Assembly (NCBI GenBank): GCA_963786955.1
Contig: CAWBAT010000005.1
Span: 1,248,001-1,312,000 of the forward strand
Direction of reading: 5' to 3'
Source: an uncultured Acidimicrobiia bacterium
GTDB lineage: Bacteria; Acidobacteriota; Terriglobia; Versatilivoradales; Versatilivoraceae
DNA: 64,000 nucleotides
Position numbers and translations under genes: made by a program
Shown here: piece after piece, positions 28,477-63,194 of the stretch
Layout of the letters: every line of letters begins with the position of its first letter
How positions within the stretch are numbered: position 1 is the stretch's first letter
The notes under the pieces: generated by a model
Told to the model about the DNA's origin: nothing
Seen by the model: only the letters and a program-made list of their open reading frames with translations
Databases searched by the model: none

Positions 28477-28551
28477 AACGGGTGAGTATGGTGGAATTTC
28501 ACCATCAACTCGCGTTGGGTTGGGAGTAACAATAATTGGACGTAAAGTGTG

Positions 28552-29289
28552 ATGAAAAGACGGTTTATTGTTTCTCCGGTGATCTTTCTTTTTGCTTTAG
28601 CATTTTTGTCTGGTGCCGAAGCTATAGCCAGAACATTCACCACCAATTTCCCTCTTACGGAGAACCCCATTTCAGAGAGTGGAGCTTGGATCAACGGTAA
28701 AACTGTTGGTCTTGATTGGGCTAATGTTAGGACGACTCCAGGGAAAGCATTCGGCACTCAAGTTCCAGGCACAGGCAATTACTACGGAGATTCTACTGCA
28801 GTGCTGTCTGGGAACTGGGGAGCGGATCAAACATTGACCGCTGGTGTTTATTCGGCCAATTTGTCCACAAATGGAGAAGTGGAGCTAAGACTTCGTACAT
28901 CGATCACAGCCCACAGCATTACGGGCTATGAAGTAAATTTTTTGGCTCAAAACAGTGGCAACAGCTACTGCCAGATTGTTCGATGGAACGGTCCTGCAGG
29001 GAGTTTCACGGTCCTGGCAGATGTGGGGGGGAGTTCCACGCAGATTGCGAATGGAGCTACTATTAAGGCGACAATTGTTGGCAACGTCATAACTGCCTAT
29101 GTCAATAGTGTTCAAGTAGCACAGTCGACTGATAGTACCTATGCGACGGGTAGTCCAGGCATAGGATTCTTTCTCTCAGGAGGAAGTTCCAGCTTAAACG
29201 CTGATTTTGGACTTACAAGTTTTACGGCTTCGGACGCCGCAGATACAACAGCTCCATCTCCGCCAGAGAATCTGCGCATTTTACCTTGA
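28552..29289 (+). CDS. Secreted beta-sandwich (ConA/lectin-like) protein with C-terminal APSPPENLRILP tail
   Basis: Signal peptide (MKRRF..AEAIA), Gly/Ser/Thr-rich beta protein, GNVITAYVN..TDSTYATGSPGIGF. Confidence 0.75.
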   Translation: MKRRFIVSPVIFLFALAFLSGAEAIARTFTTNFPLTENPISESGAWINGKTVGLDWANVRTTPGKAFGTQVPGTGNYYGDSTAVLSGNWGADQTLTAGVYSANLSTNGEVELRLRTSITAHSITGYEVNFLAQNSGNSYCQIVRWNGPAGSFTVLADVGGSSTQIANGATIKATIVGNVITAYVNSVQVAQSTDSTYATGSPGIGFFLSGGSSSLNADFGLTSFTASDAADTTAPSPPENLRILP

Positions 29290-52909: not shown

Positions 52910-53926
52910 ATGCTGCATAAACTACCTTCCGCCACCCACGTCCAGGAAACTGAAATCGTCCCTCGGAAAACTCTGATCGATCCGCGCGTGCGGATTCCGA
53001 TCGCGCTCGCCGCCGTGACAATGTGCGTAGCAGTCGCCGTGCTCGGGCCGGACCCGAACCCGTATCTTCGTTCCGCGGAACGCTTTCACGACTTCCTGCA
53101 CGTGCCAGGATTCGGGCTCGTGGCTGCTTTTCTGCTCTTTGGCTTCCCATATCGCCCCGGCGCGACGCTCGGGAGGCGGACTTGGCATGTGGCAGTGCTC
53201 TTCATGGTCTCCGTCGCCATCGGCACCCTGGTCGAATTACTCCAGGGGATGCTAGGCAGCGATCCGGACCCGTGGGACGTCGTGCACGATGGGGCAGGCG
53301 CAGCGGCGATGTTGCTGGGTGCCGCCTCGTTCTGGCCCGCCGTGCGAACGTCCGGTCGCTGGGGACTACGTCTGGCGGCGCTGATTGCGGCGATCGGCTT
53401 TGCGGGGCCGACGATCTACGCGATTACCGACGAGGCCCGCGCACGGCGCGAATTCCCTGTCCTTGCCAGTTTCAACCGAGCCGAAGAGATCGACCGCTTC
53501 GAGTGGTCGGCTCTCGCGTCCGCGTCGCTCGTGCGCTTGGACAGGGGCGGCGCGGGCCAACGACGAGCGGTTCAGGTGACGTTTTCTCCCGGCGAGTACC
53601 CGGGGTTCACTTTGAAGTATTTCCCGCGAGACTGGCGCGGTTTCCAGCAGTTCGTCCTCTCTTGTACCAACGTTTCGGACGTCCCGTTCGACGTGACCAT
53701 CCGGCTCGATGACATGCAACACAACGAGGATTATTTTGATCGCTTCAACCGGAGCTACGTGCTCGCGCCGGGCCGCAACGAGATAGTCATTCCCTTGGCC
53801 GCCGTCGAGGCTGCACCGCTTGGGCGGAAGTTCGACCTCGGTCGCGTCCGGAGCGTCATGATTTTCGCCTATCGGTTGAAAGCGTCGCGGGAGATCCTGG
53901 TCGAAAGCCTGCGCCTCGATCGCTGA
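52910..53926 (+). CDS. VanZ-family membrane protein with a C-terminal carbohydrate-binding-like domain
   Basis: DFLHVPGFG, VELLQ..LG.D.D..DV..D..GA; C-terminal YPG..PRDW..F..RFN..GRNEI.IPL. Confidence 0.7.
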   Translation: MLHKLPSATHVQETEIVPRKTLIDPRVRIPIALAAVTMCVAVAVLGPDPNPYLRSAERFHDFLHVPGFGLVAAFLLFGFPYRPGATLGRRTWHVAVLFMVSVAIGTLVELLQGMLGSDPDPWDVVHDGAGAAAMLLGAASFWPAVRTSGRWGLRLAALIAAIGFAGPTIYAITDEARARREFPVLASFNRAEEIDRFEWSALASASLVRLDRGGAGQRRAVQVTFSPGEYPGFTLKYFPRDWRGFQQFVLSCTNVSDVPFDVTIRLDDMQHNEDYFDRFNRSYVLAPGRNEIVIPLAAVEAAPLGRKFDLGRVRSVMIFAYRLKASREILVESLRLDR

Positions 53927-54139: not shown

Positions 54140-55069
54140 TTAGTTTATTTTCCTTAAGTTTTGAGGGGGGAGGGGAGCTGAAGCGTCCGTTGAGCATCCA
54201 ATTCGCTGGGTGGAAACAACTAAGTTATCCCAATAACGTGACTGCACCTGTGAGGCGCCGTTATTAATGTAATTTTCAAAAAATACTGCATTGATGCCAT
54301 AGGTGCTATAGCTACCGATAAAATTTAGGTTGGTTTTGCTTGCCTCAAGATGACCGTCAATCCAGAATTCTTGTATGCCATTCGACTGTCCCGCATCGTT
54401 CAACTTCACGTGCGCTTCAACGCAGTTCCACGTTCCGGCATTTGGAGAAGTGAAGATTGGGGTAGTACCACTCGCGCCCCCCAGGTAAACGATATGGGAA
54501 CTATCGTTATAGCCAACGCAATTTACCGTACTTCCTGTTACACAACTTGCAGGATCAATGAGTAAGTAATTATTGTTCCCCCCTGTATCATTTGACCATA
54601 GGTGAGCAATCATCGCCTCCGACCAATTCGAGGCAACAAAAGAAATCGCCCGTGTGAACTTGCTGTTGTGTCCACTTCCCTGACCAACCCAGTTGGCTTG
54701 AGACTTCAAATAGACCCGGTAATACACTTCTCGAAATTTCGTTGTACTATCCACTCCTGCAGGAGGAGGCATACCTGCACCTGGAGGTGTCATCCCTAGC
54801 GCTAATTTAAGTGATCCTGCATCCACTTGTCCGGAAGTCCAACTTGCCCGCATCCCATACGAATTGTTGAAGCCAATTCCAGACACTCTCGCAAAGCCGC
54901 CCTGGCCAGACGAATCAAAGTAGTTGGATATCTTGTCCGTTTCGAAATCATCGCACCATAACCAGGCCGGATGCAGTGTTTTCCAGTTGGACGGGCATTC
55001 GTCCGCAAATGAATTCAACGAAAACGTGGTGTACAGACAGAGCATGGCAAAGGGAATTGCATATTTCAC
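54140..55069 (-). CDS. Secreted jelly-roll (polysaccharide lyase/Cip1-like) protein with C-terminal APLPPQNLRKIN tail
   Basis: Signal peptide, WCDDFE, EVYYRVYLK, W.CVE.HVKLN..G..NG..EFWIDG, YWDNLVVST.RIGC; GGAG before GTG 55069. Confidence 0.7.
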   Translation of the reverse strand: MKYAIPFAMLCLYTTFSLNSFADECPSNWKTLHPAWLWCDDFETDKISNYFDSSGQGGFARVSGIGFNNSYGMRASWTSGQVDAGSLKLALGMTPPGAGMPPPAGVDSTTKFREVYYRVYLKSQANWVGQGSGHNSKFTRAISFVASNWSEAMIAHLWSNDTGGNNNYLLIDPASCVTGSTVNCVGYNDSSHIVYLGGASGTTPIFTSPNAGTWNCVEAHVKLNDAGQSNGIQEFWIDGHLEASKTNLNFIGSYSTYGINAVFFENYINNGASQVQSRYWDNLVVSTQRIGCSTDASAPLPPQNLRKIN

Positions 55070-55138
55070 TGATGTCTCCAAACAAATGATTTGATCTACT
55101 AGGGCCCAGTTCTCTGCAGGAAGCGGCAGAGAATTTAC

Positions 55139-56020
55139 TTATTGAATCCGCAGGTTAGTCGGTGGATTGGGAGGATTAACGGGACTTCCTGAAATATTCG
55201 AATTCCATGTATCATCTGTCGAGTAATCATCTGTCCATATATTTCCACCAGACCCGCAGGAACTTCCACCATTGCAATTCTGATGGTAGAAGACCTGGCA
55301 CATCGCATTGCCCCAGGTCGCCCCAGAAAAATCCCCACTCGCAGAATTGTAGAGATTGTGAACGAAGCTACCTACACTTGTTCCATTGACAAACAGTTCT
55401 ACCTTTCCACTGCCACCAGAAGTCGTTTGAAGAGTCAATGCGATAATGTACTCTTGATAATTCTTAGCCGCCGCTCCATTGAAGTTGTAATTCACGCTCC
55501 CGCAGACCCCACCACTACAACCGCTTCCATTGGTCGACTCCACGTTGATATTCGTCGTGTCGAGGTAAAACGTGAGCAGGTCACTGCCTCCGCCCTGCGT
55601 CAGCCGAATGATCTTATTGTGGCCCCTATTCCCAAAGCTAAACGTGCTGCCAAACTTCATCCACCAACGAAAGTAAAACGTCTTCCCACTAAACCACGTC
55701 CCAGCCCCGTAACTCCCGCTCTGCAAGTCATTACACCCACTCTGCCCATCACTTCCATCAGGAATCGTGTACTTCATCGCTCCGCTGCCATCATGCCCCC
55801 CCGTTGCATCAATCACCGCATTCGCAAAATTACACGTCCCTTTACTCGTCGTCGCACTGTCCGCATTCCAAGTAAAGTAGTTAGTTGCCATGGCGTCCTG
55901 ACCGGCCACGAACAGACAGAGAAACCAGATTATAGCCGCCAGACAAGACGACTTTTTCATTCTGGCTAAATAGAGCTTCCTGCTGCTGGGGAGACGCCAA
56001 AATGAAGAGGTGATTGTCAT
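55139..56020 (-). CDS. Secreted jelly-roll (polysaccharide lyase-like) protein with C-terminal PPNPPTNLRIQ tail
   Basis: AAGGAG RBS before ATG 56020, signal peptide ending QDAMA, FYFRWWMKF, HNKIIR, GKVELFVNG, IWTDD. Confidence 0.7.
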   Translation of the reverse strand: MTITSSFWRLPSSRKLYLARMKKSSCLAAIIWFLCLFVAGQDAMATNYFTWNADSATTSKGTCNFANAVIDATGGHDGSGAMKYTIPDGSDGQSGCNDLQSGSYGAGTWFSGKTFYFRWWMKFGSTFSFGNRGHNKIIRLTQGGGSDLLTFYLDTTNINVESTNGSGCSGGVCGSVNYNFNGAAAKNYQEYIIALTLQTTSGGSGKVELFVNGTSVGSFVHNLYNSASGDFSGATWGNAMCQVFYHQNCNGGSSCGSGGNIWTDDYSTDDTWNSNISGSPVNPPNPPTNLRIQ

Positions 56021-57956: not shown

Positions 57957-57986
57957 CGCCAAGTTCCGCAAATTCAGGGTAATTGT

Positions 57987-58569
57987 TGTAGCTGGGATCG
58001 CTGATCCTGGCCTGGGAGATTGGACATTTTTCGATAAAGTGCAGCGGCAGAATGCCGCTGCTTCCCCTGAGTGCCCTGTAAATTAGGCGATAGAATTCTA
58101 GCCCAGGGCCAGCGAGGAGCAAGAGCTCCTCACGCCGCCCTGGGTCAGCATTTCAACCAATATTATCTCCTCTCCCCCCGAATTGCTAGCCTTTCGGCGA
58201 TTCGGGGGGAGAGGGCGGGAGTGGGGGGTATTCGTTGCCAAATCCTGAATCATGCGTTTCGTTGTTGTTGCAGTGTTTGTCGGAACGAAGCGTGAGTTTT
58301 CGACGTCGACACCTTCTGCCCCCCCCTCACCTTCGCCCTCTCCCCCAACACGGAAAAGGTGTTGGGGGAGAGGGTAGGAATTCGTGGGAACGCTGACCCA
58401 GGGCAGCCGCAGCGGCTACTGCCGCTGGCGGCGCCCTGGGCTAGAATCCAACGCCCCGATGGGGCTCTCGAAGGAGGAAGCGGCCTCATGCCGCTTCATA
58501 AATGTCCAAACTCCAGAGCTGGGATCGCTGATCCTGGCCTGGGGGCCGGCCTCACCGCGGCCAGCTACA
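57987..58569. mobile_element. Non-coding MITE-like palindromic element inserted into a REP-like hairpin with a long direct repeat
   Basis: TIR about 17 bp (TGGGAGATTGGACATTT / AAATGTCCAAACTCCAG); AGCTGGGATCGCTGATCCTGGCCTGGG repeated at 57990 and 58517; nested internal inverted repeats. Confidence 0.75.
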
Positions 58570-59037
58570 GCTTGCACAAGTTAATTTCAAGTCTATCGCT
58601 TCATTTCTCGACCCACCCATTTGATTCCGCGAAGTCTCACTTCTTTTAGCATCCAATCCACGATGGCTATTACTGGTCCCAACTTGTAGTAGCTCCGCTT
58701 CAGATCCTTCGGTAACGGCGGCATTGCGTTACCCACGGCCTCCCGCAACGTCCTCCCTAACTACTCTGCTTTACGAGTTCCTTCCCGAATTCCCCCACCC
58801 CCAACTCACATCTACTCGAGTCCTCTTTGGATAATTCCACTGTAGCTCTCCAGCTCAAGGGCCCCGACCTTCTCAAAATTTCTCTCGGTTCAAATTGCAG
58901 CTCTTAGATTTCCGAGTGATGGCAAACATATGGTTCAGAAAGGGACTAATTCATAGATCCGAAATCAACTAGCGCTAAACCTTCAAAAATTTGGCGATGC
59001 AGGATGTGCGGAGCAAGATTCGCTCCCCGGTAACAGA

Positions 59038-59173: not shown

Positions 59174-59680
59174 ATGAAGTATAAAGCAGATAAACTTATT
59201 ACGATCACTATACTTCTTATTGTTGGAATGGTTCTTTTGCCTTCCTGTTTAATGGCAGCAGATGTTCAACTTGCCTGGAATGCCAATACAGAGTCCAACT
59301 TGGGTGGATACAGGATCTACTACGGGACGAGTTCGGGTAACCTGAGCAGTTCAGTCAACGCCGGGAACGTGACAGCCTATACCCTGACCGGACTTTCGCT
59401 TGGAACAACTTACTATTTTGCGGCGACTGCCTATAACACATCTGGGAGCGAAAGTGGTTTTTCAAACATCGTTTCTGCGACGGCTGGTTCTTCTTCTTCG
59501 CCTAGCTGTGATGTGAATGGGGATGGTTCTGTGAACGCACTCGATCTACAAGGATTGAGCAATGGCATATTGGCTGGATCCACGTCCAGTGTTTACGACA
59601 TTAATCGGGATACCGCAGTGAACGCTTTGGACTTGCAACGGCTTGCAAATATTATTCTCGGCACCGCTGTTTGCCAGTAG
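59174..59680 (+). CDS. Secreted FN3 (A-strand-less) + dockerin-like protein
   Basis: Signal peptide then directly DVQLAW..GYRIYYG..LTGL..GTTYYF..TAY..ES.FS; duplicated Ca-binding loops DVNGDGSVNALD and DINRDTAVNALD. Confidence 0.85.
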   Translation: MKYKADKLITITILLIVGMVLLPSCLMAADVQLAWNANTESNLGGYRIYYGTSSGNLSSSVNAGNVTAYTLTGLSLGTTYYFAATAYNTSGSESGFSNIVSATAGSSSSPSCDVNGDGSVNALDLQGLSNGILAGSTSSVYDINRDTAVNALDLQRLANIILGTAVCQ

Positions 59681-59726
59681 CTGCGAGAATGGGAATCATC
59701 AGACTAACTAAGGTGAAGGATTGGTC

Positions 59727-61406
59727 ATGCATATAGACAAGCGCTTTGCATTTCTTTTGATGGCTTTGATGATAATCTTGGGGGCATTCGTCTTATCGAC
59801 AGAGACCGCATTTGCCCAGGCCCCGGTTGTGAGCGTTGGAACGGCCAGCGGAAACGCTGGAACAGCTGTGGACTTGACCGTGTCTTTCACGGCTGGCGCC
59901 ACTGGAGTAAGCACCCTCCAATTTGACCTGACGTTCCCCTCGTCTCTAGCCTATGTTTCGACGACAACAGGTGCGGCGGCAACCGCGGCTGGGAAATCGG
60001 CAAGTGGCAGCGCTATCTCCGGAGGTGCTCGAGTGTTGGTCTTCGCACTTAACACAACCTCGATTGGTTCGGGTGCAGTCGCCATAGTTCGACTCAACAT
60101 CGCCAGTGTCACCAGCCCGGCATCCATACCTGTGGGCATCACGGGAATTGTCGCATCAGATTCTGTCAGCAACGCGGTTACTGCTAACGGTTCTGGCGGC
60201 TCGGTCACAGTCACAACCCCTGGCGACACGACCGCACCGGTGATTTCGGCAGTGACGGCCTCAGGCATGACGGCGACGGGAGCAACCATTAGCTGGACGA
60301 CCAACGAAGCGTCTGATACGCAGGTGGAGTATGGGAAGACGACGGCTTATGGAAGTCTGACGACGTTAAATGGCAGCATGGTGACGTCGCACTCACAGGG
60401 TTTGAGTGGACTCACGGCCAGCACGACTTATAACTACCGGGTGCGGTCGAAGGATGCGGCTGGAAACCAGGCGGTATCGGGGAACGCAACGTTTGCGACG
60501 ACAGCGGCGGCGGACACAACGGCACCGGTGATTTCGGCAGTGACGGCCTCAGGCATGACGGCGACGGGAGCAACCATTAGCTGGACGACCAACGAAGCGT
60601 CTGATACGCAGGTGGAGTATGGGAAGACGACGGCTTATGGAAGTCTGACGACGTTAAATGGCAGCATGGTGACGTCGCACTCACAGGGTTTGAGTGGACT
60701 CACGGCCAGCACGACTTATAACTACCGGGTGCGGTCGAAGGATGCGGCAGGAAACCAGGCGGTATCGGGGAACGCAACGTTTGCGACGACAGCGGCGGCG
60801 GACACGACGGCACCGGTGATTTCGGCAGTGACGTCGTCAGGGATGTCGGCGACGGGAGCGACTATTAGCTGGACGACCAATGAAGCGTCGGATACACAGG
60901 TGGAGTATGGGACGACGACGGCTTATGGGAGTCTGACGACGTTAAATGGCAGCATGGTGACGTCGCACTCGCAGGGTTTGAGTGGACTCACGGCCAGCAC
61001 GACTTATAACTACCGGGTGCGGTCGAAGGATGCGGCTGGAAACCAGGCGGTATCGGGGAACGCAACGTTTGCGACGACAACGGCGCCGGACACGACGGCA
61101 CCGGTGATTTCGGCAGTGACGTCGTCAGGGATGACGACGACGGGAGCGACCATTAGCTGGACGACCAATGAAGCGTCGGATACACAGGTGGAGTATGGAA
61201 CGACGACGGCTTATGGGAGCACCACAACCCTCAACACTTCCCAGCTCACCAGTCATCTCCAATCGGTGAGTGGTTTGTCTGCGAGGACGCTTTACCACTA
61301 TCGAGTCAAATCCAAAGATGCGGCAGGTAATCTGGCTACTTCAGCTGACTTGACTTTTACCACTTCCTCAGTCTTACCCCCTCCAACCAATGTTACGGTC
61401 AAGTAG
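59727..61406 (+). CDS. Secreted cohesin-like + 4x FN3-like repeat protein with C-terminal LPPPTNVTVK tail
   Basis: Signal peptide; cohesin-like VSVGTASG.AG..V.L.V..VSTLQFDLTF..IGSG.VA.V.L; four 96-aa DTTAPVIS..ATISWTTNE.SD.QVEYG..YNYRV.S.DAAGN repeats. Confidence 0.8.
   Translation: MHIDKRFAFLLMALMIILGAFVLSTETAFAQAPVVSVGTASGNAGTAVDLTVSFTAGATGVSTLQFDLTFPSSLAYVSTTTGAAATAAGKSASGSAISGGARVLVFALNTTSIGSGAVAIVRLNIASVTSPASIPVGITGIVASDSVSNAVTANGSGGSVTVTTPGDTTAPVISAVTASGMTATGATISWTTNEASDTQVEYGKTTAYGSLTTLNGSMVTSHSQGLSGLTASTTYNYRVRSKDAAGNQAVSGNATFATTAAADTTAPVISAVTASGMTATGATISWTTNEASDTQVEYGKTTAYGSLTTLNGSMVTSHSQGLSGLTASTTYNYRVRSKDAAGNQAVSGNATFATTAAADTTAPVISAVTSSGMSATGATISWTTNEASDTQVEYGTTTAYGSLTTLNGSMVTSHSQGLSGLTASTTYNYRVRSKDAAGNQAVSGNATFATTTAPDTTAPVISAVTSSGMTTTGATISWTTNEASDTQVEYGTTTAYGSTTTLNTSQLTSHLQSVSGLSARTLYHYRVKSKDAAGNLATSADLTFTTSSVLPPPTNVTVK
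60225..61370 (+). repeat. Four tandem 288-bp coding repeats
   Basis: Units start at 60225, 60513, 60801 and 61089; the first three are nearly identical at DNA level. Confidence 0.95.
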
Positions 61407-62807: not shown

Positions 62808-62816
62808 TAGTACGCA

Positions 62817-63194
62817 TTGACTGCATACAATTCCTCAGAAAATGAAAGTGGCTTCTCCAATGAAATTTCGACGACGATAGCCGCTTCGACTGATACGACA
62901 CCAACGGTGATTTGGGCAGTGACGGCTTCAGTCGTGACGGCAATGGGAGCGACCATCTGCTGGACGACCAACGAGTCGTCTGATACGCAGGTGGGGTATG
63001 GGACGACAACGGCCTTTGGAAACAACCCTGCCATCGACTCACCAAAAGTAACAAGTCATTCTCAAGCCTGGGCTGGTCTCGCTTCAAGTACGCTCTATCA
63101 TTATCCCGCCAAGTCACGCGACGCTGCTCGCTATTTGTCATTGTCCGGTGATTTTGGTTTCACCACAGTGGCTACATTTGATCTCCATCCCTGA
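62817..63194 (+). pseudogene. Decayed FN3-protein remnant
   Basis: TAYNSSENESGFSNEIS (like the 59174 protein) joined directly to a degenerate DTTPTVI..ATICWTTNESSDTQV repeat; no signal peptide; 5' part missing next to the MITE. Confidence 0.75.

Follow-up and report, generated by a model that had tools for sequence, protein, structure and literature searches.

How might an exopolysaccharide locus retain the lyase-like enzymes that it encodes at the cell or in the matrix? The question is raised by two adjacent genes, here called A and B, in a 64-kb window (the whole stretch of DNA that was analysed, positions 1,248,001-1,312,000 of contig CAWBAT010000005.1 in assembly GCA_963786955.1) from the 5.65-Mb genome of an uncultured bacterium. 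Protein A combines an FN3 domain that has no strand A with a dockerin, protein B combines a cohesin with a C-terminal peptide that resembles a lone FN3 strand A, and three further secreted proteins of the window, referred to as cargo 1, 2 and 3, end in a tail of the same kind. The reading that we consider probable is a non-cellulosomal assembly system for secreted proteins with two kinds of joint, in which cargo would be held by A, A by B, and B by a 764-residue anchor protein encoded shortly beyond the window.

At one joint, the Ca-type dockerin of A would bind the single cohesin of B. The other joint would be a split FN3 domain. Its larger part, for which we use the term catcher, begins at strand B right after the signal-peptide cleavage site; its donor would be the C-terminal end of a second protein, a tail some nine residues long (PPxN[LV]x[IV]xx). 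Acting as an orphan strand A, the tail would complete the catcher in trans, lying antiparallel to strand B with its Leu or Val buried in the core.

Domain structure of proteins A and B

The mature chain of A opens with ADVQLAW, which is FN3 strand B. The Pfam fn3 profile matches A (E 7.4e-9) from position 15 to 82 of 84, so that the strand-A positions 1-14 are absent, and the AlphaFold2 (AF2) model of mature A (mean predicted local distance difference test, pLDDT, 90.0; predicted template modelling score, pTM, 0.59) contains six strands and a two-helix dockerin, with no seventh strand and nothing in place of strand A. As such, A does not have the complete seven-strand FN3 fold of PF00041. When A is aligned with 16 homologues that are 46-89% identical, the strand-B start of the mature chain (ADVxLAW) is common to all 17 sequences and A28, at position -1, is invariant. 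Dockerin_1 (PF00404) covers profile positions 3-57 of 57 with E 2.6e-12 and 47.2 bits against a cut-off of 22.9. The two Ca-binding loop-helix repeats of this dockerin are DVNGDGSVNALD and DINRDTAVNALD; the D/N loop positions are invariant in the alignment, as are the bracketing cysteines C112 and C167, and the AF2 helices span mature residues 94-105 and 123-134. Pfam, the 17-row alignment and AF2 thus agree with an earlier note on this DNA, which had read A as a signal peptide, an FN3 domain starting at strand B and a dockerin. NCBIfam holds no family for A, for the three cargo proteins or for the other catcher proteins described below.

The same note had described B as a signal peptide, a cohesin, four FN3 repeats and an orphan A-strand, a description that Pfam, AF2, Foldseek and the homologues uphold. 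The profile checks that it suggested succeed for fn3 and Dockerin_1 on A; Pfam Cohesin (PF00963) gives no match on B itself at E <= 0.1, and seven of the eight scanned homologues of the B N-domain (60-68% identical) pass the Pfam cut-off with 26.9-49 bits. The AF2 model of this N-domain (pLDDT 95.5) has the cohesin beta-sandwich fold. In a Foldseek search of the PDB, which gave 106 matches at E <= 0.001, all listed matches are cohesins; the top match is 2xdh (E 3.5e-10, TM 0.76/0.81), a non-cellulosomal cohesin of Archaeoglobus fulgidus, and 1g1k and 2vn5 are among the others. The identity of the N-domain as a cohesin, on which the proposal of a dockerin/cohesin pair had been staked, is therefore sustained by its likeness to solved cohesins.

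Unlike the FN3 domain of A, each of the four repeats of B is a complete FN3. They are encoded by a tandem array at 60225-61216 with a 288-bp unit, 3.4 copies and 96% matches, and two of the repeats are identical in protein. Two relatives of B, P0003 and P0020, have two spacer repeats, and the number of spacers seems to change quickly. The tail at the end of B is unlike the linker between its own repeats (AADTTAPVISAV...) and resembles instead the start of the classical FN3 type, at Pfam profile positions of about 1-9. Since A starts at position 15 of that profile, the cut that separates tail from catcher lies within the AB loop. A B-type tail also terminates P0003, P0020 and the B homologues in loci L001 and L005.

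The C-terminal tail and the catcher family

A strict form of the C-terminal motif, PP.N[LVI].. near the end of an open reading frame (ORF), is found in five of the 22,673 ORFs scanned in the genome, with 0.84 expected. Four of the five lie inside the window and are B and the three cargo genes (Table 1). The fifth, C5 406971-407336, encodes a small membrane protein ending in PPKNIQFK and looks like a chance match. The tail is common to the three cargo proteins, which otherwise show no BLASTP similarity to one another, in keeping with the earlier claim of three tagged secreted proteins in the window. The tails of B and its relatives carry N-V (TNVTVK, TNVIVR, TNVRVL, NNVSVK), and the cargo tails carry N-L-R.

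Cargo 1 matches Polysacc_lyase_14 weakly (25.4 bits against a cut-off of 27, over the partial profile 138-193 of 215), and many of its homologues carry a precomputed PF21294 match; we call this family polysaccharide lyase family 14-like (PL14-like). Among its 120 best homologues, which are 47-94% identical, 73 end in the tail, down to 47% identity. In these proteins a variable stretch of 8-12 residues links the tail to the preceding, conserved ...STQRIGC. Tail-less members either stop at RIGC or bear longer C-terminal extensions that by eye resemble sorting domains of the type IX secretion system (T9SS), one of which (P0230) has a precomputed PF18962 match. A similar exchange of C-terminal modules is seen in the family of cargo 3 (P0001), from whose 2,428 matches 150 representatives were inspected. 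The tail is the end of 13 representatives, in at least 11 the same PxNL motif leads on into a whole FN3 domain, one carries a dockerin directly, and others carry PEP-CTERM or CFI-box-type anchors, with true PEP-CTERM ends seen in P0257 and P0345. The tails themselves extend only 3-5 residues past N[LV] and lack a hydrophobic helix, and so are not PEP-CTERM signals. Judged by sequence, the tail is a lone FN3 strand A at the position that anchoring modules hold in relatives.

Read-through of the stop codon from a tail into a downstream FN3 was considered and rejected: cargo 1 starts 57 nt after cargo 2, and the approximately 210 nt from the end of cargo 1 to that of the convergent gene, at 53926, contain no ORF of at least 60 amino acids. 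About 8 kb before the window, C5 1237171-1240452 (-) holds a 1093-residue frame with a P0001-like domain and three complete FN3 domains (..PATPTNLTATAGNAQVALGW..), which by its domain content is a paralogue of cargo 3 that is not split.

A profile hidden Markov model (HMM) built from the FN3 part of the A alignment finds four proteins in the genome at 50-119 bits, while FN3 domains with a strand A score at most 23 bits. The four are A and proteins of 461, 764 and 602 residues, each with its FN3 directly after the signal peptide; the genes for the 461- and 764-residue proteins lie just past the window end. In 80 loci from species genomes, the HMM finds 105 domains at 40 bits or more. By eye, nearly all of them stand directly behind a signal peptide, a position that our scripted regex classes undercount, and the one clear internal domain has a strand A. 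The parts C-terminal to the catcher vary, being a dockerin, a CFI-box-type CTERM, a lectin-like module (recognised by eye only), a large body or nothing. The 461-residue protein (C5 1313408-1314793) has a signal peptide, a catcher FN3, two FN3 repeats and an IPT/TIG domain; its end, ..GKPPKVRVF, may be a divergent tail, which would place catcher and tail on one protein. What looks like a truncated catcher gene also lies within the window at 62811-63194, between epimerase and exosortase genes; the fragment (..TAYNSSENESGFSNEIS..) has no signal peptide and no strands B-E.

Multimer modelling, which the earlier note had called for, was run for one pair, cargo 1 (residues 27-313, with a 72-row alignment) and the FN3 of A (residues 29-108, 17 rows). 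The interface score ipSAE is 0.80 in each of three runs, compared with 0.01 for the best of three controls; the mark for this score is reached by 58 of 80 solved complexes and by 2 of 110 mismatched pairs, and is a rough guide here since the alignments were our own. Agreement between the runs is at least 63% of contacts, and the partner pLDDT is at least 82. On the cargo 1 side, the predicted contacts are limited to residues 300-313, which are the tail, and on the A side they involve residues 30-36 (strand B), 82-88 and 92-100. In the model the tail lies antiparallel to strand B, with 306-311 against 36-32, like strand A of an intact FN3, and L309 packs on L33, A34, W35, F82-A84 and S97-V100. 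The last residues of the tail adjoin the first residues of A, like a cut AB hairpin. The model thus supports, and does not show, binding of the cargo 1 tail to the FN3 of A.

Tail and catcher genes also lie close together in some metagenome loci. In 80 metagenome loci with a PL14-like cargo, a script sorted the cargos into 16 tail-bearing, 59 tail-less, 2 running off the contig and 3 unresolved. With a catcher threshold of 35 bits or more, a catcher gene is present beside 6 of the 16 tail-bearing cargos and beside none of the 59 tail-less ones (Fisher p = 4e-5), a comparison in which kin are not independent and in which the regex placed one tail-bearing cargo, L092, in the tail-less class. Four of the loci (L083, L084, L085 and L087) are close kin, so the association comes from about three independent lineages. 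The catchers of these loci are minimal lipoproteins that consist of a lipobox, a Gly/Ser linker, FN3 strands B-G and a stop. In L083, L084, L087 and L096, the lipoprotein catcher gene is directly upstream of two tail-bearing genes, and in the first three of these a tailed homologue of cargo 2 stands between the catcher and the PL14-like cargo, the same order of cargo 2 and cargo 1 as in the pair at 54140-55960 of the window. Catcher and tail genes are neighbours as well in the Syntrophales locus L055 and the Desulfobacterales locus L036. By eye, the catcher FN3s in the latter two loci (L055:9860-12510 and L036:4450-11989) appear fused to a lectin-like module or to CFI-box-like anchors, and the tail-bearing proteins, with ends such as ..PPRNLRIRFR and ..PPTNLRLR, look like beta-helix enzymes.

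Order of assembly and competing explanations

Genes A and B lie on the + strand with a gap of 46 nt that has no terminator-like site, so they are probably co-transcribed, and this linkage is conserved. In nine of ten homologous loci, the next gene of note after the one for the catcher-dockerin protein encodes a B-type cohesin, starting 87-141 nt past the catcher-dockerin match in eight of the ten and 2.1 kb past it in the ninth. Catcher loci without a dockerin have no B-type cohesin (0 of 70). The genome itself has one such cohesin, that of B, and two dockerins, in A and in a 368-residue protein. From this gene context, together with what is known of the families, we infer that the dockerin of A pairs with the cohesin of B. 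The 368-residue protein (C6 146797-147903) has a signal peptide and an N-terminal dockerin very like that of A, with the same bracketing cysteines, followed by a domain of about 290 residues with no Pfam match; it is likely a direct client of the cohesin of B.

A partner for the tail of B is suggested by a fusion/fission relation. The 764-residue protein (C5 1315341-1317635, 3.3 kb past the window end) opens with a signal peptide and a catcher, which are followed by two FN3 repeats and a large body with a weak DUF5719 match; for this body the ESM Atlas gave unnamed clusters and DUF5719 and nothing else. Residues 120-764 of the protein can be aligned over their whole length with residues 163-792 of P0010 (55% identity), and the N-terminus of P0010 is a cohesin that is 62% identical to that of B. 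Cohesin and body are therefore fused in one chain in P0010 and, by sequence, in P0011 and P0014 as well. In the genome studied here and in the syntenic Terriglobia locus L001 there are two chains, one ending in the tail and the other starting at strand B. Because what is a single chain in P0010 is split here with tail and catcher at the break, the tail of B points to the catcher of the 764-residue protein and not to that of A.

Taken together, these results suggest an order of assembly. Tail-bearing enzymes, namely the PL14-like lyase and two other jelly-roll-like proteins, would be caught by the catcher of A; the dockerin of A would then dock onto the cohesin of B; and the tail of B would be caught by the catcher of the 764-residue protein, whose large C-terminal body presumably keeps the assembly attached to the cell surface or within the matrix. 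The compartment in which the joints form may be the periplasm, the outer surface or the matrix.

The earlier note had proposed another topology for the same parts, namely (A-B)n chains or rings in which the catcher of A takes the tail of one B and the dockerin of A binds the cohesin of another, giving a self-polymerising matrix capped by cargo. Both kinds of joint are indeed present on both proteins, the two genes are adjacent and probably form one transcript, and catchers may be promiscuous, the tail-catcher joint having model support for a cargo tail. Polymerisation would depend on such promiscuity, and no result specifically favours it. The N-V of B-type tails as opposed to the N-L-R of cargo tails hints at different partners, and the fission relation directs the tail of B to the 764-residue protein. 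In most relatives, moreover, B is without the tail and A is unchanged, which indicates that the role of the catcher of A is independent of the tail of B. We therefore regard polymers of A and B as unlikely, and the hierarchical order of cargo, A, B and anchor as the better fit. The complementarity of the split-FN3 ends, which the same proposal presupposed, has fared better: the complex model, tail conservation, operon context and the fusion/fission relation all speak for it.

The hierarchical reading must also be weighed against the simpler view that tail and strand-A-less FN3 are unrelated. The tail would then be a sorting, secretion or processing signal, or the remnant of an FN3 linker, the FN3 domain would be a stable six-strand variant, and only the dockerin-cohesin pair would be real. 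The tail does alternate in the same position with sorting modules, namely PEP-CTERM, CFI-box-type and T9SS-like extensions. Several further observations weigh against a tail-catcher joint. The complex model covers one pair, cargo 1 with A, and structure predictors tend to complete familiar folds, so that one versed in intact FN3 domains may merely be completing the fold here and reporting likeness in place of binding. A strand-A-less FN3 could be stable on its own. Tail enrichment around catchers in general is weak, a strict-motif tail ORF lying within 10 kb in 3 of the 80 species-genome catcher loci where 0.76 are expected, a count from which the strict regex missed two tails (an upstream fragment in L001, and L005). 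Ten of the 16 tail-bearing cargo loci had no catcher at the first scan; closer inspection found a further full catcher in L091 and a partial one in L086, and the catcher-less loci that are left are mostly short contigs. The fission relation is not one-to-one, as catcher-body proteins are also encoded next to B homologues without a tail in L002 and L007, and the PL14-like cargo is found in 0 of 300 other genomes sampled from the phylum (E <= 1e-20). Against the view that the two features are unrelated stand the catcher genes directly upstream of tail-bearing genes in several lineages, the absence of a catcher beside tail-less homologues in the loci examined, and the position of the break between tail and catcher, which falls exactly in the AB loop. 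The retention of one exact tail length in the 73 cargo 1 homologues, even at the lowest identity, would be unexpected for a remnant. On balance, we find it quite improbable that tail and catcher have nothing to do with each other.

A covalent version of the joint was also considered, in which a continuous FN3 would be restored by a transpeptidase-like reaction between the C-terminus of the cargo and the N-terminus of the catcher. The two termini adjoin in the complex model, and genes for a FemAB-family protein and an exosortase lie close by. However, lipoprotein catchers have a long linker before strand B that places their N-terminus away from the joint, FemAB-type enzymes act in the cytoplasm, and we know of no enzyme that would join tail to catcher covalently. 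Such a linkage is highly improbable, and the non-covalent joint is the one considered below.

Beyond this locus, the tail and the strand-A-less N-terminal FN3 may be the two halves of a widespread natural tag-and-catcher system of the non-covalent kind, a generalisation for and against which we see the case as evenly balanced. Several phyla, among them Acidobacteriota, Desulfobacterota (including Syntrophales) and Nitrospirota, would then hang secreted enzymes on interchangeable anchors, which might be a lipid, a CTERM-type membrane anchor, a carbohydrate-binding module, a dockerin-cohesin scaffold or a large surface domain. If true, a short portable C-terminal tag would set the destination of secreted enzymes in many uncultured bacteria of soils and sediments, and would be a new class of signal for protein sorting or anchoring that works through FN3 strand complementation. 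Hundreds of 'hypothetical' proteins with an N-terminal FN3 would gain a role as anchors, and the retention of lyase-like enzymes by the exopolysaccharide locus, at the cell or in the matrix, would be explained. Donor-strand complementation, so far a principle of pilus assembly, would also be a general docking device, and a natural, genetically encoded tag/catcher pair would become available for protein engineering.

Known relatives of the joints and the surrounding locus

The first joint has precedents. As in known cohesin-dockerin pairs, A has a Dockerin_1 domain with two Ca-loop repeats, B has the cohesin fold, and the adaptor and scaffold genes are adjacent. As points of difference, the genome has one cohesin, two dockerins and no cellulases, the locus makes exopolysaccharide, and most cargo has no dockerin of its own, seemingly reaching the dockerin adaptor through an FN3-based joint. 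A passage of PMC10553843 mentions cohesin/dockerin adhesins in non-cellulolytic sulfate reducers, and that passage contains no split FN3.

For the second joint, the principle of strand complementation is shared with several systems. In chaperone-usher pili, an incomplete Ig-like sandwich is likewise completed by a strand of another chain; in those pili it is the C-terminal G strand that is lacking, an N-terminal extension acts as donor, and assembly depends on a chaperone and an usher. In the present case, by contrast, the missing strand is the N-terminal A, the donor would be a C-terminal tail, and the partners are enzymes and anchors and not pilins. By strand and donor this does not fit a chaperone-usher donor-strand system, and chaperone and usher families have no match among the 26 window ORFs scanned. 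SpyTag and SpyCatcher, engineered from CnaB2 and locked by an isopeptide bond, offer a parallel in that a short peptide, portable between cargos, is a beta-sandwich strand that docks into the rest of the domain, although isopeptide chemistry is not indicated here. The type V pili of Bacteroidota (FimA and Mfa1) come close in geometry, since their C-terminal strands fill the groove of an absent N-terminal strand, and their subunits are lipoprotein precursors (passages of PMC4789730 and PMC5789003). They differ in that a protease removes the N-terminal strand and the product is a homopolymeric filament, whereas in the present system the gene itself lacks the strand, and the proteins linked would be different ones. 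In the surrogate light chain, the natural Ig-type domain VpreB obtains its missing strand in trans from lambda5 (a passage of PMC12859133); this system is eukaryotic, involves a single dedicated pair and lacks the last strand. An excerpt of a preprint on a Gram-positive donor-strand pilus adds another relative of the principle. In the open-access papers and bioRxiv preprints searched, as main texts, we found no description of FN3 strand complementation between secreted proteins, or of the tail.

The features of the window on which the analysis is based are collected in Table 1.

Table 1. Coordinates of the tail, catcher, dockerin and cohesin features, counted from the first letter of the window.
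Feature	Position	Strand	Description and basis
Gene A	59174..59680	+	168 amino acids; signal peptide, strand-A-less FN3 (catcher), dockerin; ORF, Pfam, 17 homologues of the same architecture
A signal peptide, residues 1-28	59174..59257	+	Cleavage at ...CLMA/ADVQLAW, as suggested by sequence
A catcher, FN3 strands B to G, residues 29-105	59258..59488	+	Pfam fn3, AF2, complex model
A dockerin, residues 112-167	59507..59674	+	Two Ca-loop/helix repeats, bracketed by C112 and C167
Gene B	59727..61406	+	ATG at 59727; 559 amino acids; signal peptide, cohesin, four FN3 repeats, A-strand tail
B cohesin domain	59817..60251	+	AF2, Foldseek, Pfam matches of homologues; sole cohesin of its type in the genome
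B four FN3 (Pur_ac_phosph_N-type) spacer repeats	60252..61370	+	Pfam; 288-bp tandem array
B tail VLPPPTNVTVK, orphan FN3 strand A	61371..61403	+	Same tail on homologues; sits at the fission point
Cargo 1, secreted, PL14-like	54140..55081	-	Ends ...PPQNLRKIN; tail at 54143-54169
Cargo 2, secreted, no known family	55139..55960	-	Ends ...PPTNLRIQ; tail at 55142-55165
Cargo 3 (P0001), secreted, jelly-roll-like	28549..29289	+	Ends ...PPENLRILP; tail at 29260-29286
Catcher-FN3 gene remnant, 5'-truncated	62811..63194	+	Catcher HMM positions 54-74 only; strands F-G and one B-type FN3

According to Pfam and NCBIfam scans, the window is an exopolysaccharide locus of the XrtA/PEP-CTERM type. An exosortase of the XrtA type is encoded from 63654 onward, a FemAB family XrtA/PEP-CTERM-associated protein is present (TIGR03019, 356.6 bits), and an EpsI-like DUF3485 protein is encoded just past the window end. 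Six glycosyltransferases, four of the GT4/GT1 type and two of the GT2 type, are accompanied by Wzy_C, an Asn-synthase-type amidotransferase, a polysaccharide deacetylase and sugar-nucleotide enzymes. The tie to exopolysaccharide that had been read from the sequence at the outset is borne out by the exosortase, the EpsI-like and FemAB proteins, the glycosyltransferases and Wzy_C. The nearest loci are in metagenome-assembled genomes of Terriglobia/Acidobacteriota.

A Shine-Dalgarno-like GGAGGA precedes gene A. Between the glycosyltransferase genes and the convergent cargo genes, 52910-53926 (+) encodes a 338-residue membrane protein for which Pfam gives no match at E <= 1e-4. The intergenic region 57960-58650 contains nested inverted repeats, such as the CCCTCTCCCCC / GGGGGAGAGGG hairpins at 58169-58214 and 58336-58374, and an exact 27-nt direct repeat occurs at 57990 and 58517. 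By their look these are repetitive palindromic elements, and the short ORFs called in this region are probably spurious.

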